A stretch of 64,000 nt of DNA from the IMG/VR virus record IMGVR_UViG_3300023179_000106, positions 1,675-65,674 of that record; one strand, written 5' to 3'. Under the pieces are notes generated by a model. That model saw only the letters and a program-made list of their open reading frames with translations. It was not told the DNA's origin and did not search any database. Origin of the DNA: a virus (taxonomy: Duplodnaviria; Caudoviricetes). The position numbers and the translations under genes are program-made. This document shows positions 2,230 through 60,793 of the stretch, piece by piece. How positions within the stretch are numbered: the first letter of the stretch is position 1; each line of letters opens with the position of its first letter.

Positions 2230-2525
2230 AGGGCCCCCGAACTGAAGCCGAGCTTGGCGAGGACGAACGAAGCGGTGACGACCCACATCAGCTGCACTAT
2301 GAAATTCAGGGCCATGTTCCACTTCTCCTTGTTTTCGTCGTGCTCCGACTCGAACGATTCCGCCTTGCCCTCCAGCCTCCAAATCTGCTGGCGAATGGGT
2401 TCGATGCCTTTGAACTCCAGGTCGTGAACCCTTGACTCCATGAACTTCATGGAATCCCTCATGTCTCGCACCGCCGACTCGACGGACCGGAGTCTCTCCT
2501 GCAAAACCTCTATGGATTCAGCCAC
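2226..2525 (-). CDS. Coiled-coil protein with a C-terminal transmembrane helix (XhlA/holin-like architecture)
   Basis: GTG start after GAGG; heptad-rich N-terminus; hydrophobic WNMALNFIVQLMWVVTASFVLAKLG. Confidence 0.6.
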   Translation of the reverse strand: MAESIEVLQERLRSVESAVRDMRDSMKFMESRVHDLEFKGIEPIRQQIWRLEGKAESFESEHDENKEKWNMALNFIVQLMWVVTASFVLAKLGFSSGAL

Positions 2526-2569
2526 GCGGCGGACCTCGACAATTGGGAACTCACACTCTATATAGCGCT

Positions 2570-3007
2570 ATGAGCGAAGAACTGACCCCCCAGGAAGCAG
2601 AGTTGGCAGTCCCTGCCGCAGGAGGGGTCAAGGACATGTCCATCGTCAGCGACGAGGCCCTTCTGGGGGTGTACGGCGAGATCATGGACAACCTTCGGAG
2701 CGACCGCGAGCAGGTTTCGGGCCTGCTCGACACCTTTTCCAACATGGTGCTCAACGACGGCGACTCCAGCACCGCCAGCAAGGAGGCCCTGGTGAACCTG
2801 CTCAAGACGAAGATCGAGGCGAGCGACAAGATGACCAGGATCGCCGACCTCATGACTCGCATAAAGCTCAAGCAGCCCGACACCTACCAGCCGTGGATGG
2901 GCAAGGGCAAGGAGAAGGGCGGAAACACGATAAACATATACGACTCTAGCGGGATAAACAGGAAGTCCCTCATAGAGCGGATACAGAAGGAGAAGGAAGA
3001 GAAATGA
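2570..3007 (+). CDS. Hypothetical protein
   Basis: ATG 2570 after TCTATATA; phage-typical codon usage; ATGA overlap with the next gene. Confidence 0.7.
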   Translation: MSEELTPQEAELAVPAAGGVKDMSIVSDEALLGVYGEIMDNLRSDREQVSGLLDTFSNMVLNDGDSSTASKEALVNLLKTKIEASDKMTRIADLMTRIKLKQPDTYQPWMGKGKEKGGNTINIYDSSGINRKSLIERIQKEKEEK

Positions 3008-22985: not shown

Positions 22986-23234
22986 ATGGCGAGGGACATC
23001 GAGTTTCGATCCGAATCCGGCAGGATATTGATAGACGGCGAGCCCTTCGACTGGGGGCTTGACGACGAAGCCATCGAAGAGGCCAACAGGCACGCCGGCA
23101 CGCCTCGCTTCATGAAGGCGATACACAACGACATCATGGGTCACTTCCTTGACTCGTTGTCCGAGGTCTTGGGCTTCAGGCCGTCAATGAAGCAGGTAAA
23201 CGAGGGTCTAGACAGGGGCTTCATATCTAAATGA
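22986..23234 (+). CDS. Hypothetical protein
   Basis: SD AGGAG; coupled to the next gene. Confidence 0.65.
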   Translation: MARDIEFRSESGRILIDGEPFDWGLDDEAIEEANRHAGTPRFMKAIHNDIMGHFLDSLSEVLGFRPSMKQVNEGLDRGFISK

Positions 23235-23761
23235 TACTCATCGATGAGAACGACGACAGGTTCTACATAGCGAGGTCGACACAGCCGGAGGCCGGCAGGG
23301 GGCTGTTCGCGTCGCGCGATATCGAGGAAGGCGACTGCCTAGAGGTCAAAGGGGTGATGGTGGACAAGGGTTCGCCTGCCGACTCCTGCACCGCCTACGC
23401 CGACGCCTTCAAGTTCGCGGCTGACTACGCAGGCGTCTACACCCGCCACATAATACCGATGGGCTACGCGGGCATCGTCAACCACGCCAACAACAAGGAA
23501 GAGCAGAACGTAGAGATCAGGCACATCATGCGCGGAGGCAAGAAGGTCTGTGTGTACCAGTTCGTCAAGCCCGTCGCCGCGGGACAGGAAATCCTCGGGG
23601 ACTACGGCGACGATTGGAGGGGGCTTGACGGGTGGAGCAGGAAGGTGAACGAGGCCTCAGACGAGTCGGAGGAGAGGGAGTGGGCCTCTTTTATAGGGCG
23701 CGGTCTATATAACCTGGACAGGCTCAGCAGGCCGAGGGGGGACGATGCCACAGATCAATAA
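23231..23761 (+). CDS. SET-domain protein-lysine methyltransferase
   Basis: AGRGLFASRDIEEG (motif I), GYAGIVNHA (NHS motif), PVAAGQEILGDYG (GEELxxDY). Confidence 0.88.
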   Translation: MILIDENDDRFYIARSTQPEAGRGLFASRDIEEGDCLEVKGVMVDKGSPADSCTAYADAFKFAADYAGVYTRHIIPMGYAGIVNHANNKEEQNVEIRHIMRGGKKVCVYQFVKPVAAGQEILGDYGDDWRGLDGWSRKVNEASDESEEREWASFIGRGLYNLDRLSRPRGDDATDQ

Positions 23762-24614: not shown

Positions 24615-25184
24615 ATGCAGTCCTGCGCCGATTTTTCATCTTCGCTCGGGTTCGTGATACTGTCGCCGGAGCCCAACATAGCGAGGCTGAGGGACACGGT
24701 GCGGTCTATTGGCTACCTTTTCGGTGACGCGACCCCGATTGTTTGCTCAGTCGCCAAGGGGGCCGGAAAGTCCAGGATCGAAGAGATGAAGGGCGTGTGC
24801 TCGGTCGTCGAGGGCGGATCAACCATAATGTCCCTGATAAACCGCGGCATGAAGGGGTGCAAGGGCGAGGGCTGGAGGATGCTGGTGATGGAGGGCGCCA
24901 GAATCCCGCGCGGAATAGAGAAGAGATACAGCCGCTGGATACGCGGCGAGAAGGACGTCCTGTTCCCGATAACGGTCAGCCAAGACCGTGAGGGCCGGCC
25001 CCTGAAGATCATGGCCAACTTCGAGGAGTGCACACTCAACGGAATAGCGATGCACACAAGTCTGTTCAAAGAGGTCGGGGAGTTCTCGGACAACCCTATC
25101 GCCGTATCCAAGAGCTTCTGGGCGGTCGGGGCGCTTCAGAGCGGCGCGACTTTCAAGGCGGTGCTTGGGGTGAAGGTCATCTAG
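24615..25184 (+). CDS. Divergent GT-A/GT2-like glycosyltransferase-fold protein
   Basis: FVILSPEPNIARLRDTVRSI..SLINRGMKGCKGEGWRMLVMEG resembles a GT2 N-terminal half; DxD not conserved. Confidence 0.45.
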   Translation: MQSCADFSSSLGFVILSPEPNIARLRDTVRSIGYLFGDATPIVCSVAKGAGKSRIEEMKGVCSVVEGGSTIMSLINRGMKGCKGEGWRMLVMEGARIPRGIEKRYSRWIRGEKDVLFPITVSQDREGRPLKIMANFEECTLNGIAMHTSLFKEVGEFSDNPIAVSKSFWAVGALQSGATFKAVLGVKVI

Positions 25185-25717
25185 ACCGAAAAAAAGTACC
25201 ACCTCGACTTGAGGTCGACTTGGTCGGACGAGTCGACCTCCTTGAGATAGTTCATTATCTCTCCCCAGCTTGAGAAGATCATCTCGTGAGGTATGGTACC
25301 AAACAGCCAGTCGGGGGCCTGGTTCTTGCCCTGCTCGACGTGCACCAGTATGGGCTTCTTCTGACGATTCGCCCAGAATATCTCCTCGAGCGTGCCGCAG
25401 GGATGCGTGTTTATGTCCAGATTGACGACTAGGAAGTCGCTTATGTCGACTAGCCTGAGGTCGGTGGCTCTGATCACCTTCATCATAGCCGACAGCTCGT
25501 CATAGCGCTCGGACGCCTTGAGCGAGGCCTTTGTCTCGTGGGTGGAATCGTCCTCCGCGCCGACTTCAGTGGGCTTATTGAGGGGGTTGAAGACGACCAC
25601 GCCCATGTCCTTGAGAAAAGGCGTGATGTCCGAACGCCACCCCGCCCCCCTGTCCGGAACCCTGTCTATGGCTCCCGCGAGGTACGCCCTCTGGTTCTTG
25701 AGTCTGTTCAAGGCCAA
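25181..25717 (-). CDS. Nucleoside 2-deoxyribosyltransferase-like protein
   Basis: YLAGAI..WR..FNP..DLRLVDISDFLVV..GTLEEIFWA..KPI. Confidence 0.8.
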   Translation of the reverse strand: MALNRLKNQRAYLAGAIDRVPDRGAGWRSDITPFLKDMGVVVFNPLNKPTEVGAEDDSTHETKASLKASERYDELSAMMKVIRATDLRLVDISDFLVVNLDINTHPCGTLEEIFWANRQKKPILVHVEQGKNQAPDWLFGTIPHEMIFSSWGEIMNYLKEVDSSDQVDLKSRWYFFSV

Positions 25718-35009: not shown

Positions 35010-35019
35010 GGTGTACAAA

Positions 35020-36039
35020 ATGAGGATCGGATTCGACTGTGGCACTTATCATCTGGTGAGCTGCAAAAGGGGCGAGGACAACGCCTTGTCGTACAAGAAA
35101 GAAGTTAACGCTTTCCTTCAGATGCCGTTGGACAACCGCTTCGTCTTCAACATGATGAAGAACGCGGGAGTCCCTTTGATCGAGCAGCCAGAGGCCAACG
35201 TGGGCTACGCCCTAGGCGAGGCTGCCGTGAACATGGCCTACACTATGACTCAAATCGAACTCAAGAGGCCCATGAAGGACGGATGCCTCAACCCCAAGGA
35301 GAAGCACGCCCAGCAGATAATGAATGTCATGTGCCACAGCCTCATAGGCGACGTGGACGAGGACGGCTCCCTTCTGTACTACTCGGTTCCCGCGAACGCC
35401 ATCAACCAAGAGACCGACGCCGACTATCACGGCAAGGTGTTGGAGGCGATGTTCAAGTCATACAGAAGCGAGAAGGGATACCGCGTGGAGCCTCACCCCA
35501 TCAACGAGGCCTTGGCGCTCGTGTATGCGGAACTGCAGGGCAAGGCTTGGACGGGCGTGGGGATCAGCTTCGGGGCCGGAATGGTGAACCTCTGCTATGC
35601 CATGTACGGGGCTCCGATATTTCAGTTCTCCCTGGTGAACAGCGGCGACTGGATCGATAAGATGGCGTCCAAGGCCATCGGAGAGGATACGACCACCTAT
35701 GTGAACAGGGAAAAGATGCACGCCGACCTGACCGTGGAACACCCGGAGACCCTGGTCCAGAGGGCCATAAAGTCCCAGTACGAGATAATGATCCAGCACA
35801 CCGTGGCGGGCATCAAGAAGGGCGTCGAGGAGGCGGGCAACAAGGCTCGATCCGAACAGCCAATAGACATCGTCATAGCTGGCGGCACGAGCATGCCGAA
35901 GGGCTTCGACGTTCTGTTCAGGAAGATACTCGAGCAGGCGAAGATAACGAACATGAAGATCGGGGAGGTGATCCGCCCGGCGGATCCGCTATTCTCGGTG
36001 GCGCGCGGCTGCCTGATCGCCGCAGAAAACGCGAAGTAG
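35020..36039 (+). CDS. Actin-fold ATPase (MreB/ParM/FtsA superfamily)
   Basis: IGFDCGT (phosphate 1), INEALA (connect 1), GISFGAGMVN (phosphate 2), VIAGGTS (adenosine), DPLFSVARGCL (connect 2). Confidence 0.88.
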   Translation: MRIGFDCGTYHLVSCKRGEDNALSYKKEVNAFLQMPLDNRFVFNMMKNAGVPLIEQPEANVGYALGEAAVNMAYTMTQIELKRPMKDGCLNPKEKHAQQIMNVMCHSLIGDVDEDGSLLYYSVPANAINQETDADYHGKVLEAMFKSYRSEKGYRVEPHPINEALALVYAELQGKAWTGVGISFGAGMVNLCYAMYGAPIFQFSLVNSGDWIDKMASKAIGEDTTTYVNREKMHADLTVEHPETLVQRAIKSQYEIMIQHTVAGIKKGVEEAGNKARSEQPIDIVIAGGTSMPKGFDVLFRKILEQAKITNMKIGEVIRPADPLFSVARGCLIAAENAK

Positions 36040-37782: not shown

Positions 37783-38583
37783 ATGAACATCGAGCACATA
37801 TCCGTGTCGAGGGGCAAGTCCTATAGGCAATGCCCATACTACTACAAACTCAAGTACCACGACAAAATACCTAATCCGGGCGAGGAGCAGTTCTATTTCG
37901 TCTACGGCAAGATAATCCACAAAATAGCCGAATGCCACGTGGCAGAGGAGGGTGCCAGGAGCATCAAGGAGATATCCAAGGAGGTGCTTGGCGGGAAGAT
38001 CGAACTAGAGCACGGGAAGTTCGCGCCTCCTTTGCCGCCGGAGTTCAGAAGTCGTCTGCCGGGGCATCTCAAGGCCTTGGAGAGGCTCAACAAGAAGATC
38101 GGATGCTCCGGAATCACGGAGCACAAATTCAGGTACGACCTGGAGATCCCCAACTGCAAGTATGTGACGGGTTTTATCGACCGTATCATACTGAAGGAGG
38201 GCAAGGCGTGGATAATCGATTACAAGACCACGAAGAAGGGCCCGTTCAGGGAGGATAAGAAAACCATCAAGTACGACCCCCAGCTTCGGATCTATTCCAG
38301 GGTCGTGCAGAAGGAGTTCGGGATAGATCCGAAGGACATCAGGGCCGCGTTGTTCTACCTTGAGGACGAGGAGATCATAGACGCTTCGTACTCGGAGGAG
38401 TCTCTGGAGGCGGCCGAAAGAGAACTTCTGGAGTTGTACGACTCTATAAGCTCGCACCGGGCCGAAGACGCCAGGGGAATAACGGGACAGCACTGCAAGC
38501 GGTGCGAATACAGAGACATGTGCCCCTTCTTCAAGAACAGCCAGAGAAAGGTCTATTGGAACGGCGACCTGTCGTCTCTCTGA
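37783..38583 (+). CDS. PD-(D/E)XK RecB/Cas4-like exonuclease
   Basis: S.S..Y.QCP, GKIIH, GFIDRI..IIDYKT, QLRIY, CKRCEYRDMC (four Cys, Fe-S type). Confidence 0.88.
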   Translation: MNIEHISVSRGKSYRQCPYYYKLKYHDKIPNPGEEQFYFVYGKIIHKIAECHVAEEGARSIKEISKEVLGGKIELEHGKFAPPLPPEFRSRLPGHLKALERLNKKIGCSGITEHKFRYDLEIPNCKYVTGFIDRIILKEGKAWIIDYKTTKKGPFREDKKTIKYDPQLRIYSRVVQKEFGIDPKDIRAALFYLEDEEIIDASYSEESLEAAERELLELYDSISSHRAEDARGITGQHCKRCEYRDMCPFFKNSQRKVYWNGDLSSL

Positions 38584-39437
38584 TTTCGGTTCGATGGTCT
38601 GGGCACGAAGTGCCTGTCGTACCTCGCCTCTGGATTCTCTCTGTCGACCACCGGTATCGCGGACGGGTCGAAGGCCGAAGAAAGAAGCCAGGCGTGTGCG
38701 TTTTTCGTGAACACCTCGCTGATCGCGGAGAGCGGCGTGAAGAATCCGATCCCGTCGCCCGAAGATACGTCGGAAGTACCCCAACACACGCCCACAAGTA
38801 GCCCGTCGTCGGTGAGCAGCCCTCCACCCGACCTGCCCGGGCGCGGGCTGTTCAGCCTCGTTACGAGGTCGGCGCCCTCCGTGGACTTCACGACGACTTC
38901 GTAGCGCGCGACCTCTTTTCCTCCGTCGCATCCCATCGAGTTCAGGCGCATTCCGACCTTCGGAGAGAAACCCATCGAGATCGGAGCGAAGGAGCATTCC
39001 CAGTCTGGCTTGAACCTGAGTAGGCTGACGTCTTGTCCTCTCCTGTTGCTCCAGAATAGCACCTCTGCCTCGTAGGAGGCGGGAGAGGCCAGCCTGGGTC
39101 CATCCTGATACCAGGTGGTTATTTTGGCTCGCTCCATTCCGTTCGGGCTGTAGTCCATATCTCCGCTCCACAGGTGGCCGCAGGATATTACATAAGCCCA
39201 TCCCGTTTCCCTGTCGTAATGGCATATGGTTCCGGAGCCCGCCGCGCCGTGGACGGAAATTCTCACGGAAACCATCAGCAGGTTCTGGAACCTCTCGTCC
39301 CTTTGCTCGTTTAGTATGCACGGGCTGTAGGAGCAGGACTCCCTGTATAGGGGGTGCTCAGGGGCGACGGGCGAAGCCGTCGCAGACGATGCCCAAGAGA
39401 GGGCTAGAATGATCCCCAGAAGCAAAATCCTTTTCAT
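38553..39437 (-). CDS. Secreted trypsin-like serine protease
   Basis: Signal peptide MKRILLLGIILALSWASSATA; GSGT, ISCGH (His), DVSLL (Asp), PGRSGGGL (Ser), VGVCWG. Confidence 0.85.
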   Translation of the reverse strand: MKRILLLGIILALSWASSATASPVAPEHPLYRESCSYSPCILNEQRDERFQNLLMVSVRISVHGAAGSGTICHYDRETGWAYVISCGHLWSGDMDYSPNGMERAKITTWYQDGPRLASPASYEAEVLFWSNRRGQDVSLLRFKPDWECSFAPISMGFSPKVGMRLNSMGCDGGKEVARYEVVVKSTEGADLVTRLNSPRPGRSGGGLLTDDGLLVGVCWGTSDVSSGDGIGFFTPLSAISEVFTKNAHAWLLSSAFDPSAIPVVDRENPEARYDRHFVPRPSNRNQRDDRSPFQ

Positions 39438-39480
39438 ATTTTCAGCCTCCATGCCGTACTAGTTTTATATAGGTTTTACG

Positions 39481-39996
39481 ATGTCCAATAATCTCGCCCT
39501 GTTCGTCACTCACCACGTATTTTTGACCGACCACGAAATCTCGCTGGCCGTTTGCGGTCGCTCGCTGCGGAAGATCGGACACTGCGTCCCCGTGTGGGTT
39601 GATGCAAAAACTGGCAAGACGACGGAGCCGGCCAAAGAGGTTTTTTGCGACTATCACTTGGCGGGGATATCGGAATCCTCCGGCGAGGTGAAATTGGAAG
39701 GCGACGCGACATTCAGAATCATGCTGCCGAACGCGGGTGCTTGGAAACCGCCGCAGGAGTTGGACTTCGCCGAAATGGCCGAGTGGACGAGCGAGATGAG
39801 GCTTGAATTTATGAAGCAGAGGGATGCATGGTGGTTCAACAACCCCAGGCCATCGGACTTCAAAGACCTTGCTCGTGGATACCTGCGTTTCGAGGTGAGG
39901 AAACAGGATTTGAAGCTGGGGCGCAGGAAGTACTCGGCACAGCACGTGGTCGAGATCGCGTCTGAAAAAAGGTTGCTTGACTCCCTAACAGCCTGA
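39481..39996 (+). CDS. Hypothetical protein
   Basis: 171-aa ORF filling the gap between neighbours. Confidence 0.6.
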   Translation: MSNNLALFVTHHVFLTDHEISLAVCGRSLRKIGHCVPVWVDAKTGKTTEPAKEVFCDYHLAGISESSGEVKLEGDATFRIMLPNAGAWKPPQELDFAEMAEWTSEMRLEFMKQRDAWWFNNPRPSDFKDLARGYLRFEVRKQDLKLGRRKYSAQHVVEIASEKRLLDSLTA

Positions 39997-40491
39997 AAGC
40001 GACATGGCCATCCGTATGGATATTGTCTCCCCCGGAGACACGACGAGGTTCTGGCCTATGTTCGCGGACGATATGAGAATGGTTCCGCTTCCGTAGTCCA
40101 CTCCTGTGCTCATGAAGATGTTCCGAACCGGACCCCACGACTCCGTGGTGGATGTGAACAAGACCGTCGGGCTGTTGGCCTGGTTGCCCGTCGGAGCAGA
40201 CGTGACATCGAAGTTGTCGGATCGGATCGCCTGACGCTCGTAACCACCTGCGTCGGGCTCCAAGCCTTCCAGGGTGGCTATGGTGTCCGACGCCGAAATC
40301 GAACTCCTTGAGTCCAAGCCGAGATAGTACTGGTTCGGTATCTCGCCTCCCGCGAACAGAACTCGCAGTATGTAGTCCTCTCCAAGCACGTGCATCGTGT
40401 TAAGTATGTTCCGTTCCGTTCGCAGGACGCTTCCGGTGCGGGATGTATGCACCAGTTCGACTATACGCATGATTCCATTCCACTTCTTCAT
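39985..40491 (-). CDS. Putative virion structural protein
   Basis: YYLGL..GGYERQAI..ANSPTVLF..SWGPV..VSPGETI pattern of phage tail beta-sandwich proteins. Confidence 0.6.
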   Translation of the reverse strand: MKKWNGIMRIVELVHTSRTGSVLRTERNILNTMHVLGEDYILRVLFAGGEIPNQYYLGLDSRSSISASDTIATLEGLEPDAGGYERQAIRSDNFDVTSAPTGNQANSPTVLFTSTTESWGPVRNIFMSTGVDYGSGTILISSANIGQNLVVSPGETISIRMAMSLSGC

Positions 40492-40539
40492 GACCTAATT
40501 TAGGCCCGCTGGCATCCTTTTTGATCGGAGGCGGTGCAG

Positions 40540-40547
40540 CATAAATA
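40540..40547 (+). promoter_or_regulatory. Putative late promoter CATAAATA
   Basis: 4 nt before ATG 40552, with no SD. Confidence 0.55.
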
Positions 40548-40551
40548 GGTC

Positions 40552-40734
40552 ATGGAATTCAAGAGGTGGCTGGCGGAGGTTGGCATGGGGGGCGGAGGGC
40601 CGGGTTCTGGGATGGCGCCGCCGCTCCAGAGGCCCGGAGTGGAGGCCCTTGCTGATTATCAGGGCCCTGAGCAGACCGATCCCAGAAATCCCAAGGGGAA
40701 GCTGCCCCCGACAAAAAGGAAAATCAAGAAATGA
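40552..40734 (+). CDS. Small Gly/Pro-rich protein with a capsid-targeting-like N-terminus
   Basis: Starts MEFKRWLAE; basic C-terminus; ATGA overlap with the next gene. Confidence 0.65.
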   Translation: MEFKRWLAEVGMGGGGPGSGMAPPLQRPGVEALADYQGPEQTDPRNPKGKLPPTKRKIKK

Positions 40735-41450
40735 GGTCAGCATTCGCATTTCTTCTGGTGGTGTTCGCACATGTGGCTCTGGCCTCTGATGGGGACGCGA
40801 TCGCCAGGTACAAGGTGGCTACCGAGGATTTTTCGTCCGAAAAAGCCCACATCAACACGGTTGTGCCGGCATATGTGTCCTCTGGTCGGGACGAGCCGGT
40901 AGAGACGCTTCAGTGCCCGATACCCCGCTCCGACCGAGTGAAGAACTTCACGGGCATTCAGTGCGTGTGGTCGTCCATAGAGACGCTCGGCAGATGGGCG
41001 GGGGAGGAGAGGCTCATGATCCCTCCGCTAACCAGCAGGGCGCAATGCAAGAGTTACTCCGGCCCCGACAAGTCCGCAACGGTCATGAAGTCGTTAGGGG
41101 TCAGATTCTCGCAGACTTACGGCGACAAAAGGAAGGGCGTGGAGATGATAAGGGCTGCAATGGAGCAGGGTCGCGGAGCTCTTTTTGACGTCCCGGGCCA
41201 CGCGATGGTGCTTGTGCACTTCGACGAGGCCGGGGACAGGGCTTGCTGGATCGACAATTCCGACGAGACGCTCAAGGTTCAGAAGAGCACGGTCGCGGCC
41301 TTCATGAAGAGGTGGGGGTCGTGGGTTCTAGTCATCTACGCAGAGCAGGAAATCGTGCAATATAAGGCATATGGGCCATTTATGCCCGTGATGGAGGCCG
41401 AACCTCCCTTTCTTCGACTCGAGGGAAATTTCGTGCCCCGTCCTCACTAA
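40731..41450 (+). CDS. Secreted papain-fold (C39-like) cysteine peptidase
   Basis: Signal peptide MRSAFAFLLVVFAHVALA; GIQCVWSSIE (Cys), GHAMVLV (His), WIDNS (Asp/Asn). Confidence 0.7.
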   Translation: MRSAFAFLLVVFAHVALASDGDAIARYKVATEDFSSEKAHINTVVPAYVSSGRDEPVETLQCPIPRSDRVKNFTGIQCVWSSIETLGRWAGEERLMIPPLTSRAQCKSYSGPDKSATVMKSLGVRFSQTYGDKRKGVEMIRAAMEQGRGALFDVPGHAMVLVHFDEAGDRACWIDNSDETLKVQKSTVAAFMKRWGSWVLVIYAEQEIVQYKAYGPFMPVMEAEPPFLRLEGNFVPRPH

Positions 41451-43283: not shown

Positions 43284-43727
43284 TCAAGAGCTCTCCCAGT
43301 CGTCTTCGTCTTCGTCTTCGTCTTCCCAATCATCTTCGTCTTCGTAGTCGTCCCAGTCGTCCTCGTCCTCGTCCTCCCAATCTTCATCTTCGTCGTCTTC
43401 TTCATCTTCGTCGTCTTCGTCGTATTCGTCGTCTTCTTCATCTTCGTCGTCTTCTTCATCTTCGTCGTATCCGCGCCAATCATCGGCATCGTCGTCTTCA
43501 TCTTCATCATCCTGATCGTCTTCAAGGATTTCCTCGTAGTCTTCTTCGTCCTCATCGCCGTAAGAAGCTTCCTCCCAACTCCATTCCGCTATGTATTGGA
43601 GACGAGACGGCTCATGCGGACTTTCTGATGTCTGATCGGACTTTGCGCTTGCAGAAGCCCACTCTTCATACCACCCAGTGCCGTATATGTCATCGGCAGA
43701 CTCTTCGAAATCCTCTCTGAAGTGCAT
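43284..43727 (-). CDS. Extremely acidic protein
   Basis: SD AAGGAG upstream; C-terminal ~90 aa almost entirely D/E with spaced W/Y. Confidence 0.75.
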   Translation of the reverse strand: MHFREDFEESADDIYGTGWYEEWASASAKSDQTSESPHEPSRLQYIAEWSWEEASYGDEDEEDYEEILEDDQDDEDEDDDADDWRGYDEDEEDDEDEEDDEYDEDDEDEEDDEDEDWEDEDEDDWDDYEDEDDWEDEDEDEDDWESS

Positions 43728-43832: not shown

Positions 43833-45229
43833 TCAGCGCATGAATTTACGAACCAGTTTGCCTCCCGACTCCTCCCACATGCCGTCGGACAGGGCCTGGG
43901 CGACGCAAGCCGCGGAGGCCAAGCGGGCCTCTTTTGGGTCGTGCACGACCTCGTCGACCAGCTTGCCTGACGGGTCGAATTCGTAGTAGGAATCCGAGGC
44001 GATCTCCACCTCTAGGTCTGGGCTCACATTGAGCACAGAGACGACTGGCAGGTCTGATATCTTGGCGTATTTCGGCTCCCTGACCGCCACGATCGCGCCT
44101 CCGCCCTTCGTTTTGACGACCTTGTCGCCCCGATTGAGGCCGACGAGAACCTCGGCCCAGGACTTCGAAGAAAGCGCCTTGATTTCGTTGGGCTCCACTA
44201 TCTTCCAAGCCACAAACACTTCCCGGAAAATGTTCGATATGTCCGCGCCTTGATCTTTTGCGCAGGCCACCATGCATTTCGCCGCGGCCGAATAGTACTT
44301 GGGCGTTCTGGGGGTGAGGGGCACGGCCTTGAGCAGGACGGAAAAGCATATGTCTCTGGCCTTCTTGAACGCCACGGACCTCGCGTCTCCTTTGGCCACA
44401 AGGGAGTCATAGACCTTGGTGAATGCGTTGTACCAGGCTGCCGAAAAAACCCTTCCGAAGCTGTGGCACTCCGCCGCTAGCTTGTTGTTGGATGTTTCGG
44501 CGGGAAGCTTGGACGGGTCGACGTACAGGAAAAGCTCTCTGGCGGGGTCGCGCAAGGCGTTGGGGAGGTAGGACGGGTCTTGGTGACGGCCCTTATGAGT
44601 TCGCCGACCTCTTCGGCAAGGCGGGAGGCGGAGTTGGAGAGCCTCAGGTCGCCGCCCGTTTCCTTGAGTACCTTTTCTATCACCGCGTCATAATTCATGA
44701 GATTGAACATCGCCACGATGTCGGAGAACGCCTCGTGGAACGACCATATCTCGAGAGCCTGGACGCTCCAGAAGTCGGGTCTCATAGAGTCGAGCACGGC
44801 GTGTCCCAGTTCGTGCGTCACTATGTCCGAGGAGTCTGCGAAGTATGTGTTTTTGCCCCTGTAGTTGTAGTAGAAGAACCTGAGGGAACGCCTGTCGTAG
44901 TACGCGTTCATTTCTACCCCGGCCGCCGGAATCACGGAAAGAGAGCTGGTGGCCGCCCACCGCTGCAGGGGCGACTTCAGCAGGGCCTGGATCGCGTTTA
45001 TGCAGGATCCCACGGAGATGTGGCAGTTGAGGGCCCTTCTTTCGCTGGCGTTTTTTGGCTGCGGCGACAGGCCTTGAACCGAGTATTTCAGAGCCCCAAT
45101 GGCGGGCGGCTGGACGTTCGCTACCAGGTCGGGGGTGGTGGGGTCGTTTATCACGAAGCCTCCAACCATGTTGACCAGTTCCGCGCGTATCTTTGCGAGG
45201 CGTCCCGCCTCCGTGGTTTTCTTGAGCAT
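43833..45229 (-). pseudogene. HExxH gluzincin metalloprotease (M4/M36-like), split by a 1-nt frameshift near 44579
   Basis: 5' part has NAYYD, VTHELGH and FHEAFSD; the other frame continues DPSYLPNALRDPA..ECHSFGRVF; SD AGGAGG before ATG 45229. Confidence 0.75.
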
Positions 45230-45278
45230 GCTACCTCCTTGTGGCTCTAAACATATATACGCAACTAGGAGGTGCATA

Positions 45279-45896
45279 ATGATGGATTCCTTCCACTCGC
45301 ACGAAAGAGCGTTCATCGGACGAATAGGGGAGAAAGAATGGAGGGAATACAAGAGATTCGCCTTCAGGGACGACATGCTGAAGCTGAGCGTGGGAGTCGT
45401 GCTCGGAAGCGCATTCAACAAGGTGGCAAACAGCATTTCCGACAACCTCTTGATGCCCGTTCTGTCGTTCCTCGCGCTTGATGCCGGGGAGGCCTGGAGG
45501 GACTGGTCTTGGAGTCCTCTGGTCGGCCTGAACTTCAGGCTGGGGCGGGTTGCGGGAGACGGGTTCGACTTTCTTATCGTTTCGGTCGCCCTCTATCTCG
45601 TTTATGTCAAGATGGCCGGTTTTGGGCCGAAAGAGCCCCCTCCATGCAGGCGGTGTCGCCTGTGCATGGAGTGCGTGAACCCCGAGGCGGTCAAATGCAG
45701 GTCTTGTGGAGGAGAACTAGATGGCGTCGAAAGAAGAGATCGAGTCGAGGATAAAGGAACAAAGGACGGCGGAGGCGAACAAAAAAGGACTGATGGGTCA
45801 AGGAGGAAAGATCGGAACCGTGCTTCGGATGCTGGGAAGTCCGATAGTCGGCCAGTCGGAAGACGTCGCGTTCCTCGATCTCGAGGGAAGGGGTGA
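45279..45896 (+). CDS. mscL: MscL-family mechanosensitive channel with a C-terminal Zn ribbon
   Basis: EYKRFAFRDDMLKLSVGVVLGSAFNKVANSISDNLLMP (S1-TM1), FDFLIVSVALYLV (TM2), CRLC..CRSC; SD AGGAGG. Confidence 0.85.
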   Translation: MMDSFHSHERAFIGRIGEKEWREYKRFAFRDDMLKLSVGVVLGSAFNKVANSISDNLLMPVLSFLALDAGEAWRDWSWSPLVGLNFRLGRVAGDGFDFLIVSVALYLVYVKMAGFGPKEPPPCRRCRLCMECVNPEAVKCRSCGGELDGVERRDRVEDKGTKDGGGEQKRTDGSRRKDRNRASDAGKSDSRPVGRRRVPRSRGKG

Positions 45897-46314
45897 CGAC
45901 CCGACTGGGTCGCCCATGATGGACCTGCCGGTCGCATACCTAGAAGGGGTCATGAGGCCCGAGGGCGTCGAGTGGGGGGACATAGCAGACGCCGTCCCGG
46001 TTTCTACGAGGACAGCCGGAATGCACTTCGACGGCCTCAGTCGATCGATGCATCTTGAGATAATCTACAAGGACGAACCGCCGGAATTGAGCGTCTATCA
46101 CAGGGGCCACTTGGTCTACAGAGAAGTCCAAGGCGACCTCGTCTGCTATGTGCCGCTAGACGAGTGGGAGGAGTGGGTGTCGTCCCTCTTCAAGACGGCG
46201 AAAAGAATTCAAAGGGAGTCCAAGGAACTGGAGTTCAAGGAGAGGGTTCAACAGGCCGACGAGTCAAAGCAGTCTTGGCTCAGGCACATCGCATCCCGAT
46301 GGGGAATCACATGA
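45721..46314 (+). CDS. Hypothetical protein
   Basis: SD GGAG; 197 aa; overlaps the MscL tail by 176 nt. Confidence 0.7.
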   Translation: MASKEEIESRIKEQRTAEANKKGLMGQGGKIGTVLRMLGSPIVGQSEDVAFLDLEGRGDDPTGSPMMDLPVAYLEGVMRPEGVEWGDIADAVPVSTRTAGMHFDGLSRSMHLEIIYKDEPPELSVYHRGHLVYREVQGDLVCYVPLDEWEEWVSSLFKTAKRIQRESKELEFKERVQQADESKQSWLRHIASRWGIT

Positions 46315-47128: not shown

Positions 47129-47156
47129 ATTCTAACAAAATCTAAGCCGCTGTCAA
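47129..47156 (-). promoter_or_regulatory. Sigma70-type promoter
   Basis: TTGACA-N16-TAGAAT on the minus strand. Confidence 0.7.
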
Positions 47157-47623
47157 CGTCTTCCTTCAAGCATCTCCAAGATGTTGTCGGCGTCCGCTCG
47201 GCTGTCGAGAATCTGGTCTTCCAGGAACAACGCGACATACATCCCGTCGACGGAGTCCTCGGGCGACGAGGCCGCCAGCTCCTCGGCCTGCGCATGGCGC
47301 AGGACGTAGTTCTGCACGACTTGATCTTCAAGCGCCAGCGCGGAACGGAGGATTTCCGCTGGGTCCGACGACTTGACCTGAAATTCCCCGACGGCACTGG
47401 GGACTGACGGGTCTAACCCGCGGCGGGTCGCGATGCCGTGAATCAGCCTGCGGAACTGTTCGATGTGCTTCATTTCCCCGGAGGCCTGCTCCAGGAAGAA
47501 CTCCGACATTTCTTCGCGGTGCAGGCCACGCACGGTGGTGGCGGCCTGCATGTAGAAGTGCCAGTGTGCGTACTCATTCGCCAGGTCGACCTTCAGGAGG
47601 CCAACCATCTCGTCAATCTTCAT
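47153..47623 (-). CDS. Ferritin/bacterioferritin-like protein
   Basis: DLANEY..FY..FLEQASGEMKH..ALALEDQVVQNY four-helix bundle pattern. Confidence 0.8.
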   Translation of the reverse strand: MKIDEMVGLLKVDLANEYAHWHFYMQAATTVRGLHREEMSEFFLEQASGEMKHIEQFRRLIHGIATRRGLDPSVPSAVGEFQVKSSDPAEILRSALALEDQVVQNYVLRHAQAEELAASSPEDSVDGMYVALFLEDQILDSRADADNILEMLEGRR

Positions 47624-47909
47624 TTTCAATGTCCTTTCTTGGGCTGAACTTGGGCTCTCCTTGTCCGTCGAAGCCAACTATGCTGACCGAGCCGGACAAG
47701 AAATTCTTCCACAGTATTTCGCCGATCCTAACGGATCCGCACCACTGTATGACCTTGAATATGTCGTCCAGTTCTTTGATGTCCTGGAGTACGCATGCGG
47801 CGATTATGTCGTCCATCTCCTCGCGCGAGAGAGAAACATACTTGCCCTCCTCCTCGCACCAGTGGAGGTCGTCGGCGGGTATGATGTTGTTGATTACGTA
47901 TTTATACAT
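47613..47909 (-). CDS. Hypothetical protein
   Basis: Start MYKYVINN after AAGGG; overlaps the ferritin start. Confidence 0.55.
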   Translation of the reverse strand: MYKYVINNIIPADDLHWCEEEGKYVSLSREEMDDIIAACVLQDIKELDDIFKVIQWCGSVRIGEILWKNFLSGSVSIVGFDGQGEPKFSPRKDIENED

Positions 47910-50367: not shown

Positions 50368-51096
50368 TCAAGACGGTAGTCTTTGGCTGATCTTTGCCAC
50401 TCCCCATTCTGACCCCTTGTTCGCCACATAGTCTTGTCTTATTGCCGCATCCTCGCATATGTTCTTGCTCAGATCCATCGTCTCCCGTATGTCCTTGAGT
50501 TGGCAGTTCGCTGTTCTGACCTCGTTGGAATGGGCGATGCAGGAAAGGACCGGCGGGGCGACAAAAAGCTCCAGCCTGTTGTGCATGCGAACCCTGAACT
50601 GGTAGTTGGTGTCGTCGTACCCCCAGCCTAGGTTTATGCTCTCGTCGTAGCCGTTGACGGAATAGAAGTCCTCCCTCGTCGCCCCAATGAATCCCGCGCA
50701 TCCGTTGTTTCCGTTCGCATCCTCGCTTGCGAACGACATCACTATCCTTTTGTTCGCGAAAGACCGCTCGACGAACTCGCAGAACCCATTCGGCATCGTG
50801 ATGTCCGAGTCGAGGTTGCACAGGATGTCGCCTCCCGCGGCCCTGTGGGCTATGTTCTTGGCGTGTGCGGCGACCCAGTACCGAGGCTCGTCGGTTCTCA
50901 AGAAACGAAGCATGCCGGAATCAAGGTAGGAAGACAGATTTTCTGAAACCCACTTGCCCACTTCGTCCTTCCCTCCGTAGTCGAGAAGCACGAACTCTAC
51001 GTTGCCGTACGACTCGCACGCCTTCAGGTTCTTGGGGTAGGTCTCCTTGAGGTGGAAGAGTCGATCCATGCACGTGGTGCAGAAGGATATTTTCAA
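50368..51096 (-). CDS. GT2-family glycosyltransferase with a GT7C-like C-terminus
   Basis: TTG start after AAGGAG; ISFCTTCMDR, VLLDYG, AKNIA..CNLDSD (DxD), VNGYDE..GWGYDD. Confidence 0.88.
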   Translation of the reverse strand: MKISFCTTCMDRLFHLKETYPKNLKACESYGNVEFVLLDYGGKDEVGKWVSENLSSYLDSGMLRFLRTDEPRYWVAAHAKNIAHRAAGGDILCNLDSDITMPNGFCEFVERSFANKRIVMSFASEDANGNNGCAGFIGATREDFYSVNGYDESINLGWGYDDTNYQFRVRMHNRLELFVAPPVLSCIAHSNEVRTANCQLKDIRETMDLSKNICEDAAIRQDYVANKGSEWGVAKISQRLPS

Positions 51097-51725
51097 GCGT
51101 TCTCCTTGAAGAAGCCCACCACGGAAGCGCGACAGTGATCGCCCGCGTCTGCGTCCACCCTGTTTATGCTGTGCCATACGCCGGCCCTCGTCAGCACCAG
51201 CCTGTTTGGCTTGCAAGTCACGTAAGTTCCTATGCCGTAGGTGGCAAGGAAGCCGTCCTCGTACCTGTGGTCAAGATGGGGGTGAACGAAGTTCTCTTCG
51301 CGAGGCGTCTTGGCGAGGAGCAGTTCGCCGCCCCAAGTGCTGGCCCATTCGGGGTGGACATAGTATATGACGGCCCCTGTGTACCCTTGGTCGTTGTGCC
51401 AGGAAAGCTTGGTGCCCCGCGGGTAGAGGTAGGCCCTGACGGTCAGAGCCGCCCAGTTCGGCACAAGCGAAGGATGGGCCTTGGCCACGTTTGTGAACAT
51501 CACGTTCATGAGGTCGATGTAGTTGCCGTAAGGGCACCCCGAAGCGTCGTAGTTCTTGCCGCCGATGCATGTCCCGTCTGTGAGCCGCCAGACCTTCGAC
51601 CACCCGGATATGTGAGGCATGAGGTACTCCTCCTGCTGCACGGCAGTCCAAAGCGCGTCGAACTGGGTTTTCTCGAGCACATCGTCGTACACGACGAAGT
51701 CTTCAGTCTCCATCAATTTTATCAT
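51093..51725 (-). CDS. 2OG-Fe(II) oxygenase (prolyl-4-hydroxylase/EGLN-like)
   Basis: WHND (HxD), YYVHPEW...WGGEL, KPNRLV..WHSI (distal His), RASVVGF (2OG-binding Arg). Confidence 0.88.
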   Translation of the reverse strand: MIKLMETEDFVVYDDVLEKTQFDALWTAVQQEEYLMPHISGWSKVWRLTDGTCIGGKNYDASGCPYGNYIDLMNVMFTNVAKAHPSLVPNWAALTVRAYLYPRGTKLSWHNDQGYTGAVIYYVHPEWASTWGGELLLAKTPREENFVHPHLDHRYEDGFLATYGIGTYVTCKPNRLVLTRAGVWHSINRVDADAGDHCRASVVGFFKENA

Positions 51726-52370: not shown

Positions 52371-54872
52371 ATGGCGTGGTGGGATTTCTACAGGCTTTGG
52401 ACTTACCAGTTCGAGAAGGGACCACTTGAGAAGCTCGACAACCGCAATCTGACGGGTGCGGGCGTCGTCGTGCCCGACGCCATGCCAGACCTCCGCAGCG
52501 ACGCCTACGGCGACGCGAGGAGTCAGATCAGGCTCCACGACAGCAACGACTTCATCGACCTGAGCACCGTCACAAACCGCCAGAGCCGATACAAGGAGTA
52601 CGAGAGGCTCAGGAGCGTGGCGGAGGTCGAGATGGCCATGACCGTCATCAGCGACGAGGCCTGCGTCCACGGCGACACCCGTATCTCCACCCTTTTCGAC
52701 GGACAGAAGACCATACGCTGGCTCACCGAGAGGTGGAAGAAGAACCCCAGTCCGTTCCTGGTCTACTGCTGGGACTTCTCCAAGGAGGACTACACACTCG
52801 GGTGGGCCTACGAACCCAGGATCGTCAAACGGGACAAGACCGTGAAGGTGCTGCTGGACGACGGCACGAGGTTCGTGGTCACGCCGGACCACAGGATACT
52901 CACACGCGACCAGAGGTGGGTGGCCGCCGGCGACCTGAAGAAGGGCGACGAGCTCATGCCGTTCTACCGCCTGCAGCCGAACAAGAAGCTGAATAGGCTG
53001 CGTACGGGCCAGTTCCCCAGAATATTCACGTTCGACGGCTGGAAGCACGAGAGGCAGTTCATAGACGAGTGGAAGGGCGAGGGGGAGCGGTACGGAAAGG
53101 TCGGGATGGCGACGAAGCTCCTCGCCTCGGGGTTCAGCACCAGGAAGGTGGGGAGCATCATGAAGCACTCCTGGAACAGCGTCAGGGACTGGATCGGCAA
53201 GGAAGGGTTCAACACCAAGGAGCTCAAGTGGCTCGGGCGGATGAACGACAGAAGGCGCGTGGTCGGCGTGATAGAGGGCGAGGACGCCGAGGTCTACGAC
53301 CTCAGCGTAAGGGAGCACGAGAACTTCTGCACCGACGGCGTGGTGATGCACAACTGCCAGAAGAACGACAAGGGCGACATCTTCAGGATATCGTGCGAGG
53401 ACGAGCAGGTTCGCAAGGAACTCGAGTTCCTTTGCTTCAACAGGAAGATGCTGAACCTGAACCGCAGGGCGTGGCAGATGGTAAAGAAGCTGTGCATATT
53501 CGGCGACGCCTTCTACGAGCTGGTGACGGATCCGGAGGAGCCCAAACAGGGCGTGCTGAAGATGCAGGAGCTCCCTCCCGACAGCATGTTCAAGATCGTA
53601 ACCACGAAGGGGCGGGTGGTCGAGTACCAGCAGAGCAAGGAGGGCCCCGACTACCAGGCCCTCACGAGGAGCTCCGTCACGACGGCTTCGGAGCAGGAGC
53701 TCATGCAGTCCAATGCGATAAGGTTCGCCCCCAGCCAGGTGATCCACATATACCTCGGCGACGACAGGAGGACGTTCTACCCCTACGGGCAGAGCCTCAT
53801 GGAGCCGGCGAGGGGGCCGGCCCACCAGCTGCGTCTGATGGAGGACGCCATGCTCGTGTACCGGCTCGTAAGGGCCCCGGAGCGCAGGATATTCTACATC
53901 GACGTCGGGCAGCTCCCGCCGTACAAGGCCGAGGCCTTCGTGGAGAGGATGAAGGACCAGTTCAGGAAGAAGAAGGTGCAGACGGGACGCGGAACCGGGG
54001 CCAACGCCGTCGACGAGAGGTGGCACGCCCCGGCGGCCGACGAGGACTACTGGATACCGATCCGCCCGAACGCAAACACGAGGATAGAGACGCTGCCCGG
54101 CGCCCAGAACCTCGGAGAGATCGACGACGCCATCTACTTCAGGAACAAGCTCTTCACCGCCCTGAACTTCCCGAAGAACTACATGAACAACGAGGACGCG
54201 GGGGCGACGAGGATAACGCTCAGCGCCCAGGACGCAAGGTTCGCGAGGATGGTGGAACGCATACAGTCGAGCGTCGAGGACGGCATCCTTGAGATATGCG
54301 AGAGGCACCTCGAGATGAGGGGCTTCCCGGCGGAGGCCTACGAGGATCTCAAGATCGAGATGACCCCGCCGAGCAGCTGGAAGGAACTGAGCGAGGCAGA
54401 GATCATGAACAACAGGATCAGCGTGGTCACCTCGCTCAAGAGCAGCATGCTGATGAGCGACTTCGACCTTCTCACCCGATACATGCGGGTGTCTGAGGAG
54501 GAGGCTCAAAGGATAATCAGCCGCAACAAGATCCAGAAGCTCGAGGATCTCAAGATACAGATCATCGGCCAGAACCCGCAGCTCCTCGGCGTGGGTGTGC
54601 CTGGCTCCGACTCCGGGGGCCCCGAGATGGGCGCGGAGATGGGCGGGCCGACGCCAGACATCGGCGGGGACCAGCCCCTCGGCATGGACGGGCCGCCTGA
54701 AGGTGGTGGCGAGCAACCAGAGCTAGAGGGACTACCGAAAGAAGAGGGCGACGAGGCGCCGCCGGAGCTCCCCGATCCGACAGACGAGGAGATCAAGAAG
54801 TACGACCTCGGCGTTGAGGACTACAGCAGGGTGATCGACCAGGAGGACATCGACTGGAGCGAGGAGGGTTAG
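52371..54872 (+). CDS. gp20: Portal vertex protein containing an intein
   Basis: QLRLMEDAMLVYRLVRAPERRIFYIDVG, EDYWIP, IETLPGAQNLGEIDD..YF..KL. Confidence 0.95.
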   Translation: MAWWDFYRLWTYQFEKGPLEKLDNRNLTGAGVVVPDAMPDLRSDAYGDARSQIRLHDSNDFIDLSTVTNRQSRYKEYERLRSVAEVEMAMTVISDEACVHGDTRISTLFDGQKTIRWLTERWKKNPSPFLVYCWDFSKEDYTLGWAYEPRIVKRDKTVKVLLDDGTRFVVTPDHRILTRDQRWVAAGDLKKGDELMPFYRLQPNKKLNRLRTGQFPRIFTFDGWKHERQFIDEWKGEGERYGKVGMATKLLASGFSTRKVGSIMKHSWNSVRDWIGKEGFNTKELKWLGRMNDRRRVVGVIEGEDAEVYDLSVREHENFCTDGVVMHNCQKNDKGDIFRISCEDEQVRKELEFLCFNRKMLNLNRRAWQMVKKLCIFGDAFYELVTDPEEPKQGVLKMQELPPDSMFKIVTTKGRVVEYQQSKEGPDYQALTRSSVTTASEQELMQSNAIRFAPSQVIHIYLGDDRRTFYPYGQSLMEPARGPAHQLRLMEDAMLVYRLVRAPERRIFYIDVGQLPPYKAEAFVERMKDQFRKKKVQTGRGTGANAVDERWHAPAADEDYWIPIRPNANTRIETLPGAQNLGEIDDAIYFRNKLFTALNFPKNYMNNEDAGATRITLSAQDARFARMVERIQSSVEDGILEICERHLEMRGFPAEAYEDLKIEMTPPSSWKELSEAEIMNNRISVVTSLKSSMLMSDFDLLTRYMRVSEEEAQRIISRNKIQKLEDLKIQIIGQNPQLLGVGVPGSDSGGPEMGAEMGGPTPDIGGDQPLGMDGPPEGGGEQPELEGLPKEEGDEAPPELPDPTDEEIKKYDLGVEDYSRVIDQEDIDWSEEG
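52662..53354 (+). mobile_element. Intein (231 aa) in the portal gene
   Basis: Block A CVHGDTRI; block B VTPDHRIL; block F VYDLSV; block G VVMHN followed by +1 Cys. Confidence 0.92.
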
Positions 54873-60085: not shown

Positions 60086-60793
60086 ATGAAGCTACTTCTG
60101 GAGCACGAACTGACCCCGGGATCGGTGTTCGAGAACAGGCTCATCCTGGGCGGGGGCGCCGTCCTCAACGAGATGGACCTGCACGAGGCCACCGGGGCCG
60201 GCGGACTCGTCAAGTTCCGCGGCAAGTTCCAGGAGGCCGACGCGGTCAACAAGAACAAGAGAACCTACCCGTTCAACATCCTCAACGACAACGTGAAGGG
60301 ACTCCAAGAGACCATCAAGAACGGCGGGCTGATCGGCGAACTCGACCACCCCACCGACTCGATCGTCCACTTCGCAAACGCCAGCCACAAGATCACCAGA
60401 CTCTGGTGGGAGGGCAAGACCCTCATGGGCGAGGGCGTCATTCTGAACACACCCCACGGCAAGATTCTCAAGGCGCTCATCAACGACGGCGTCAGGGTTG
60501 GCATCTCCAGCCGCGGGGTGGGCAACGGTAAGGTCAACGAGGAAGGCATCCTCGTCATCGGCGAGAGCTACAAGCTCATCACCTTCGACGCGGTCGCCGA
60601 CCCCAGCACCAGCCAGGCGTTCCAGGAGAAAGTAGTCTCCAAGGAGAGCGTGGTCCACGCGGCTGCCCCGGAGGAAGCGCGCGTGTCAGTGAAAAATGAA
60701 GCCAGCGGCATACATACCCTGAACAAGGACATAGTTCTTGCCGCCCTCGGCGGAATCATCCAGAAACAGGCCAAAGCCATAAAGAGAGGTTGA
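60086..60793 (+). CDS. gp21: Prohead core protease
   Basis: NKNKRTYP, GELDHP, GISSRGVG, FDAVADPST. Confidence 0.93.
   Translation: MKLLLEHELTPGSVFENRLILGGGAVLNEMDLHEATGAGGLVKFRGKFQEADAVNKNKRTYPFNILNDNVKGLQETIKNGGLIGELDHPTDSIVHFANASHKITRLWWEGKTLMGEGVILNTPHGKILKALINDGVRVGISSRGVGNGKVNEEGILVIGESYKLITFDAVADPSTSQAFQEKVVSKESVVHAAAPEEARVSVKNEASGIHTLNKDIVLAALGGIIQKQAKAIKRG

Follow-up and report, generated by a model that had tools for sequence, protein, structure and literature searches.

Several described systems bring unrelated enzymes to one place by means of a common terminal element. In cellulosomes, exported enzymes of unrelated kinds share a single C-terminal module, the dockerin, which docks to a shared partner through the dockerin-cohesin interaction and is a folded, duplicated calcium-binding domain of about 70 residues. 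Encapsulin cargo-loading peptides and phage capsid-targeting sequences are short terminal peptides common to unrelated enzymes; encapsulin shells have the HK97 capsid fold, and both encapsulin and capsid-targeted cargoes are cytoplasmic. Proteins bearing the C-terminal domain of the type IX secretion system (T9SS), or the signals of sortases, exosortases and archaeosortases (LPXTG, PEP-CTERM, PGF-CTERM), combine an N-terminal signal peptide with a conserved C-terminal element, and many of them are proteases. Short terminal routing tags of these kinds are informative on mechanism and useful as tools. Here we describe a very short tag, unrelated to them in sequence, in a window of 64,000 bases (bases 1675–65674 of the 65,674-base virus record IMGVR_UViG_3300023179_000106). 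The tag stands near the C-terminus of two predicted exported peptidases of different fold, an HtrA-like serine protease (gene T) and a papain-fold cysteine peptidase (gene C).

Relatives of both proteins were collected with a word-indexed search (768 for T and 268 for C, of which the best 120 of each were listed), and 133 related loci were fetched, 131 from IMG/VR and two from genomes, on contigs of 2.4 kb to 572 kb. The locus resembles a dockerin system in that unrelated, putatively exported enzymes have one C-terminal element in common. Unlike a dockerin, the tag has 21 residues, is coil in structural models and does not match the Pfam dockerin family (PF00404), and no scaffold protein was identified. 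It shares its brevity and terminal position with cargo-loading peptides, whereas its carriers bear Sec-type or lipoprotein signals (a hydrophobic N-terminal 12-mer in 110 of the 120 listed homologues of T and in as many of C; lipoboxes in two further carriers, L134 and L138). A role of the carriers as prohead protease or capsid cargo was ruled out by these export signals and by the separate Peptidase_S77 gene of the record (Table 1).

The shared tag and its two carriers

The peptides IPVVDRENPEARYDRHFVPRP in T and MPVMEAEPPFLRLEGNFVPRP in C align without gaps, are identical at 10 of 21 positions and form the best ungapped 21-mer pair between the whole of T and the whole of C. None of 300 shuffles of T reached ten identities, the maximum being nine, in two shuffles. 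Both peptides lie where a first-pass annotation of this DNA, made from the sequence alone, had placed them (Table 1), and the ten identities with the same spacing that it reported are confirmed. A six-frame regular-expression search of the whole record found the full motif at these two places only. At the DNA level 33 of 63 bases are common and the Arg and Pro codons differ between T and C; the likeness is therefore taken to be kept at the protein level and not to stem from a recent DNA copy, and recent gene conversion between the two tags was ruled out on the same evidence. The annotation spoke of a C-terminal tag ending in FVPRP. The position near the C-terminus holds, except that T runs 13 residues further and C one; FVPRP as such is an ending of this genome only; the Arg varies in orthologues, and the conserved core is [FY][IV]PxP.

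The tag is kept in the orthologues of both proteins, where its loss was what the first-pass annotation had named as speaking against it. The consensus is IPIxDRNNPQxxYPxxYIPxP, with Pro2, Asp5, Pro19 and Pro21 conserved at 90% or more; the residues at least 90% conserved are P267, D270, P284 and P286 in T (alignment A2, 59 sequences) and P219, P236 and P238 in C (alignment A1, 66 sequences). A loose tag pattern was found in 111 of the 120 listed homologues of each family, a strict one in 101 for T and 69 for C, and the length is exactly 21 residues in 108 of 125 aligned tags. When A1 was compared with A2, hhalign produced a single match, over the C-terminal 44 columns (probability 91%, E 1.1e-6). 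The first observation of a shared tag on T and C is thereby confirmed, and it is broader than first noted. Judging from the alignments, it is a short linear motif near the C-terminus, conserved in a fixed register and under selection in the orthologues of both proteases.

A resemblance without common function, arising by chance, by convergence or as the neutral remnant of an old domain shuffle, would be in keeping with the mere 10 of 21 residues shared by the two copies in the window and with the atypical C copy. It is made close to negligible by the outcome of the shuffles, the hhalign match, the strength of the library matches described below and the near-invariance of the Pro/Asp/Pro/Pro positions, in fixed register, over hundreds of orthologues from three families.

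Among the listed homologues the tag is followed by 0–37 residues in C and 2–24 in T, variable in sequence; most T orthologues have two to five, against the 13 found here, and the T and C of the window end in H and Q (one each). No hydrophobic stretch follows the tag. The variable residues and the lack of a hydrophobic stretch argue that the tag is neither a membrane anchor nor a ligand recognised by its free carboxylate. In both AlphaFold2 (AF2) models the tag is a coil on a variable linker behind a well-folded core, with predicted local distance difference test (pLDDT) values by block of 63–79 (64/79/66 in T, 68/79/63 in C). A coil of moderate pLDDT is what would be expected of a linear motif that becomes ordered on binding. 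The statement that the tag is not a known sorting signal stood up, since no Pfam or NCBIfam model matches it; nor does any Pfam, PHROGs or NCBIfam model found on T, C and their neighbours cover the tag. The tag profile gave nothing meaningful against PDB sequences, and a full-text literature search for tag strings returned only unrelated work on food peptides.

The two carriers were assigned from profile matches and models. The trypsin-like character first proposed for T is supported by its Pfam match to Trypsin_2 (Table 1) and by its AF2 model (pLDDT 83.4), whose top Foldseek matches are the protease domains of DegS, DegP, DegQ and HtrA1 (E about 1e-9). The catalytic triad H93, D141 and S208 (in GRSGGG) is invariant in A2, and the residue six before the catalytic Ser is Ser, not Asp. 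Members of the HtrA/DegS family are regulated by C-terminal peptides. T shares the His-Asp-Ser triad and the fold with HtrA/DegP (S1C) but not the C-terminal PDZ domain: Pfam gives Trypsin_2 only, and the approximately 50 residues after the protease domain are modelled as coil. The NCBIfam HtrA models scored far under their cut-offs on T. The tag also differs from a PDZ ligand of the outer-membrane-protein type (C-terminal YxF) in its variable following residues and in the lack of a terminal aromatic residue here; because of the former, a ligand read through a free C-terminal carboxylate is unlikely.

The papain fold first proposed for C was likewise recovered. The AF2 model (pLDDT 89.7) was matched by Foldseek to the C39 peptidase domains 6mpz, 5xe9, 3k8u and PCAT1, to papain-like toxins and to staphopain; the matches to C39 domains and papain-like toxins had E of about 1e-4 and probability 1.0, and the target-normalised template modelling scores against C39 domains were 0.63–0.74. 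Q77-C78, G156-H157-A158-M159, N176 and D178 are invariant in A1. C has the fold and the Cys/His pair of the C39 bacteriocin-processing peptidase domains, but it is a free-standing, predicted exported protein and not the N-terminal domain of an ABC exporter. Its sequence does not match the C39 profiles (PF03412/PF13529) or any other Pfam family at E ≤ 0.01, there is no PHROG or NCBIfam match, and a PDB profile search with the C family was empty. The ESM Atlas neighbours of C are Peptidase_C39_2/C70 clusters, a likeness of features that serves as a lead only.

Both proteins begin with basic residues, then a hydrophobic segment and AxA, and both models have an N-terminal helix, in agreement with the signal peptides noted at first. 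T and C would accordingly be exported and cleaved after residues 26 and 18, respectively.

Proteins carrying the tag

A profile hidden Markov model (HMM) of the tag was run over 23,434 stop-to-stop open reading frames (ORFs) of at least 40 aa in 2.34 Mb (the 133 loci and the genome; counts include overlapping loci of one contig). Scores of 8 bits or more were confined to T ORFs (54 of 88) and C ORFs (42 of 60), and the best other ORF reached 7.2 bits. Most of the T and C tails with lower scores belong to a variant that has other residues in place of Pro2 and Pro19 (IKIxD...YILxP).

A search of 15 large records with the tag profile recovered T, C and three other ORFs with export signals, L134, L136 and L138, which have a conserved His-Gly...Cys dyad. 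There were up to three tag carriers per genome, and in one record two T paralogues are tagged. L134 combines a lipobox with a match to Pfam Peptidase_C14 above the cut-off (E 3e-9). L136 shows an anchor at its N-terminus, and L138, which also has a lipobox, reached the highest score of all (46 bits) under the search's own profile A3. L136 and L138 are 50% identical, L138 and L134 25% identical across the His-Gly...Cys region. In an alignment of 12 sequences of this family, termed K, H-G and C are invariant. No Pfam caspase match was obtained for L136, L138 or nine library members of K, and the family profile had no match in PDB; L136 and L138 do align to L134. Family K is thus best described as a putative caspase-like cysteine peptidase, often a lipoprotein, the caspase fold being assigned by Pfam for L134 only. 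Ten of the 12 IMG/VR K loci have the tag (at least 8 bits), and all ten have a hydrophobic N-terminus. In five K proteins (P0260, P0271, P0288, P0291 and P0302), sub-threshold EF-hand loops (D-x-D/N-x-D-G-x-I-x-x-x-E) lie approximately 40–60 residues before the tag, which suggests calcium binding in caspase-like carriers.

A 33-column profile was also searched against a library of 1.84 billion representative proteins (E ≤ 1e-3), the matches being classed with core HMMs. It gave 63 matches, the best at 67.8 bits (E 4.7e-14). Of these, 19 are T, 11 are C and 13 are K; a further 13 are repeat-derived ORFs, and the remaining 7 are short or chimeric, P0292 among them being repeat-like as well. One T match is a 597-aa fusion of Peptidase_M14 and Trypsin_2 with the tag at its end, and some T members carry lipoboxes. 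Some of the short or chimeric ORFs have tails that resemble one of the families: C-like on a LysM fragment, K-like on an LptF/G N-terminus and T-like on a sub-threshold ParB_N. The repeat-derived ORFs (P0253, P0259, P0261, P0264 and others, 13–14 in all) contain regularly spaced IPIRDWN / NPYQGLK repeats that score with the tag profile; owing to this regular repeat-spacer layout they were taken as translated, CRISPR-like repeat arrays and as false positives. No cellular protein family with the tag was found in the library, and tblastn searches of the INPHARED phages with T and with C gave no match. With the repeat-derived and the short or chimeric ORFs set aside, the tag is restricted to the T, C and K families and the one M14 fusion, and its carriers all come from a single widespread T4-core phage lineage in which many phages are huge.

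The distribution bears on the idea of a second-step sorting signal, read after Sec export by machinery that moves the enzymes across, or fixes them onto, the outer membrane or cell surface; the tag would then be a new and very short counterpart of the C-terminal secretion domains. Known two-step systems likewise place an N-terminal Sec or lipoprotein signal and a conserved C-terminal element on enzymes of unrelated kinds, and the lipoboxes of L134, L138 and some T members, together with the position of the tag near the C-terminus, agree with it. Against it, no Pfam or NCBIfam sorting domain matches. The tag is a coil of 21 residues without secondary structure, far under the size of a T9SS C-terminal domain, with no beta-sandwich of 70–100 residues and no match to PF18962/TIGR04183. 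Unlike sortase, exosortase and archaeosortase signals, it has no transmembrane helix, that is, no hydrophobic helix and basic tail behind it, and no NCBIfam CTERM model matches. Since the tag is absent from the cellular proteins of the library, a host sorting machinery would have no native substrates that carry it. We consider a sorting signal of this kind unlikely.

Possible functions of the tag

A common docking or sorting function fits the restriction of the tag to predicted exported peptidases of three unrelated folds and one M14 fusion. The first-pass annotation had suggested a tag that sends exported proteases to a common partner; the set of carriers agrees with it, and no such partner was found. 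The explanation we favour, while rating it slightly below an even chance, is that the tag acts as a short docking peptide through which several peptidases reach the same partner in the envelope. The peptidases would leave the cytoplasm by Sec export, some of them as lipoproteins, and the unstructured tail would serve as a common docking peptide for one envelope-located partner, encoded by the phage or by the host. Peptidases of differing specificity could in this way work at one site or on one substrate, with lysis, receptor removal or exclusion, and envelope remodelling as options. Lysis, exclusion and envelope remodelling were also proposed at first, and nothing in the data shows any such role.

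A more elaborate form of docking is possible but doubtful. In that form the tag would be the address label of an unrecognised phage system, in which three or four peptidases (serine, papain-like cysteine, caspase-like cysteine and sometimes zinc carboxypeptidase) are exported and gathered on one envelope receptor or on each other. If this is true, the phages of a globally distributed lineage, some of them of 0.5 Mb, would build an extracytoplasmic 'multi-protease machine' that serves host takeover, exclusion or lysis, and the tag would represent a new class of portable periplasmic or cell-surface targeting peptide. The data suggest several phage proteases acting as one coordinated set, and the tag could provide a small targeting peptide if it alone is sufficient. 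The lineage is abundant but uncultured, and a tag of 21–26 residues offers a bait toward the envelope structure that is attacked or remodelled.

The sequence just upstream of the tag may point to another function. L-A-R/N-x is frequently found there, which extends the conserved stretch to about 26 residues, and Ala-Arg/Asn-x occurs in all three families. It could be a cleavage site, the tail serving latency, activation or turnover as a pro-segment or degron read by one processing protease (a tagged enzyme, or a host tail-specific or HtrA-type protease) that switches on or clears all the exported peptidases jointly. Every carrier is a peptidase, a class in which zymogen control is common, and a pro-segment is easily removed from a place such as that of the tag, terminal and carried by a flexible linker. 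Such a regulatory tail nevertheless appears rather unlikely: the same inhibitory peptide would hardly suit three active sites that differ in fold, A-R is lacking upstream of the tag in both T and C of the window, and the Ser in place of Asp six residues before the catalytic Ser of T does not, by the chemistry of trypsin, point to Arg specificity.

The tags of T and C were compared in 17 genomes with both genes (of 18 tabulated, one was excluded because the end of the locus truncates its T). Both proteins keep Pro19 in nine genomes and have lost it in seven, and one genome is discordant. On the T-core tree its loss is one event in T and two in C, and with one event in T the co-variation was dropped as a statistical argument. 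Tags of the same genome are more alike than those of different genomes, 6.9 against 5.5 identities of 21 (16 genomes, one identical duplicate dropped; 10,000 permutations, p 0.004), a difference inflated by clade structure. When the test was restricted to the eight genomes in which T and C both have full Pro-type tags (c629, c3779, c6316, c0025, c461, c3070, c209 and L012 dropped), the identity was 11.25 of 21 within genomes and 9.29 between genomes, and 296 of 40,320 pairings reached the observed sum. The likeness is suggestive of concerted change and counts in favour of docking to a common partner, with kinship only partly removed.

Likeness within genomes is also what would be seen if the tails bound each other, or each other's catalytic domains, and so joined T and C, with K where it occurs, in a single hetero-oligomeric particle of several proteases. 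The presence of several carriers per genome agrees with such an assembly, as does the spacing of T and C, which are divergent and 1.1–1.9 kb apart in at least seven other genomes. Elsewhere the two genes are 10–260 kb apart, and in some genomes the distance of 48–260 kb speaks against assembly, as does the lack of regular structure of the tag in both models; on balance a self-assembling particle is very unlikely.

Several findings weigh against docking to an envelope partner. No partner for the tag was identified, and PDZ_2 (PF13180), tried as a phage-encoded receptor, was found in none of five large records, other PDZ models not having been searched. Export of the carriers is read from sequence features only. 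The joint loss of Pro19 in T and C comes down to one event in T and two in C, and the likeness of tags within genomes is confounded by kinship. Even the loose tag pattern is missing from nine of the 120 homologues listed for each family; in the complete 572-kb record G001, T and C are present and the tag profile has no match, and in some lineages the tags are weak or unrecognisable. A coil of moderate pLDDT is equally possible for a functionless tail, though the conservation of the tag argues otherwise. Finally, the uncultured 595-kb phage LR756511 (L140, LR756511.1), whose major capsid protein (MCP) is 78% identical to that of the record, has neither T nor C by tblastn, so the system is not essential to the lineage. 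A full-text literature search for LR756511 returned nothing. In the main text of Al-Shayeb et al. 2020 (PMC7162821), the words 'protease', 'secreted' and 'peptidase' do not occur, and 'signal peptide' occurs in the reference list only.

Genomic setting and host indications

The record encodes a T4-type core consisting of the MCP, an intein-bearing portal, a terminase, gp25, a prohead protease and a tape measure protein of 2353 aa. Positions of the features are collected in Table 1.

Table 1. Features in and around the T–C cassette and elsewhere in the window (window coordinates).
Feature	Position	Strand	Evidence or remark
Gene T, predicted exported HtrA-like (chymotrypsin-fold) serine protease without PDZ, 299 aa	38553..39452	-	Pfam Trypsin_2, E 1.1e-8
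Putative export signal of T, residues 1–26 (KR, Leu-rich core, ATA before S27)	39375..39452	-	Hydrophobic segment 8–27; N-terminal helix in model
Tag of T, residues 266–286	38595..38657	-	Tag HMM 30.8 bits
Extension past the T tag, 13 residues, SNRNQRDDRSPFQ	38556..38594	-	Variable; overlaps 3' end of convergent PD-(D/E)XK gene
T/171-aa ORF intergenic gap	39453–39480		28 bases
171-aa ORF between T and C	39481..39996	+	No export signal; homologue in 72/133 loci
168-aa ORF between T and C, weak likeness to Gp80 (podophage fibre)	39985..40491	-	Pfam PF23140, E 5.7e-5, under curated cut-off; homologue in 82/133 loci
Gene C, predicted exported papain-fold (C39-like) cysteine peptidase, 239 aa	40731..41450	+	Fold match and invariant residues
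Putative export signal of C, residues 1–18 (ALA before S19)	40731..40784	+	Hydrophobic segment 1–25; helix 2–16 in model
Tag of C, residues 218–238, divergent from consensus	41382..41444	+	Tag HMM 16.3 bits
SET-domain protein	23231–23761		
Nucleoside 2-deoxyribosyltransferase-like protein	25181–25717		
Volactin-family actin	35011–36039	+	Pfam, E 1.4e-62, full-length; homologue in 65/133 loci
147-aa ORF	43284–43727	-	C-terminal half nearly all Asp/Glu
ORF with HELGH motif	44477–45445	-	In 75/133 loci
MscL-like ORF	45099–45896	+	Pfam MscL, E 1e-14; likely start ~45279
Ferritin/Dps-like protein	47153–47677		
2OG-Fe(II) oxygenase	51093–51725		
Portal	52371–54872	+	Portal_T4, E 4e-77; intein splicing domain at residues 153–328
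Prohead protease (T4-type)	60086–60793		Peptidase_S77
MCP	61755–63182	+	Gp23, E 5.5e-85

T and C lie in a block that is kept in 60–87 of the 133 loci and comprises a Volactin-family actin, a primase, a PD-(D/E)XK nuclease, T, the 171-aa ORF, the Gp80-like ORF, C, other unknowns, a ferritin and a terminase. Within it, T, the 171-aa ORF, the Gp80-like ORF and C are conserved as a unit. The 171-aa ORF has no assignment in Pfam, PHROG or ESM Atlas. The gap between T and this ORF is AT-rich and holds a TATA-like near-palindrome, with AAAACCTATATAAAACTAG on the T side, which could be a shared promoter element of the bacterial -10 or archaeal TATA type.

The record lacks a terminal repeat, and related records of 144–245 kb are rated 28–48% complete, so it may be a fragment; related IMG/VR records with terminal repeats reach 572 kb. 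Either the 65.7-kb record is such a fragment, or genome sizes in the lineage may range very widely. Pfam recognised no muralytic enzyme among the ORFs scanned; the argument that T and C are lysins because there is no endolysin was set aside as unusable for a record that may be a fragment.

The indications of the host are mixed. The metagenome-assembled genome (MAG) labels conflict, naming Crenarchaeota, Bacteriovoracaceae and Thermoplasmatales, and there are no tRNA genes. Pointing toward bacteria are the lipoboxes on some carriers, the LysM and LptF/G chimeras, the HtrA likeness of T and Shine-Dalgarno-like motifs 5' of 20 of 48 genes (background 20%); toward archaea, the Volactin-family actin and two of the MAG labels. 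The lipoboxes, the one LysM-linked fragment and the HtrA-like architecture weakly favour an ordinary bacterial envelope. Nothing supports the host with a protein-rich envelope that was suggested at first. A passage of Labonte et al. 2015 (PMC4611503) associates T4-core myoviruses with Verrucomicrobia cells and with Thaumarchaeota cells.

Some other genes of the record deserve mention. Volactin is an actin described in haloarchaea, and its homologues in the related loci (Table 1) make a Volactin-type actin a core gene of this phage lineage. The MscL-like ORF, which has a Cys-rich, zinc-ribbon-like tail and overlaps the annotated ends of the HELGH ORF and of the ORF at 45721–46314 (+), is a candidate phage mechanosensitive-channel homologue that could be relevant to lysis or osmotic control. 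The HELGH motif is of the zinc-metallopeptidase type, and its ORF has no Pfam match, export signal or tag. An 807-aa ORF (genome bases 1466–3889, minus strand) crosses the window start and combines a poly(A) polymerase/CCA-adding head with RNA-binding domains (E 6.5e-25). A SET-domain protein, a ferritin/Dps-like protein, a 2OG-Fe(II) oxygenase, a nucleoside 2-deoxyribosyltransferase-like protein and a strongly acidic 147-aa ORF are encoded as well.

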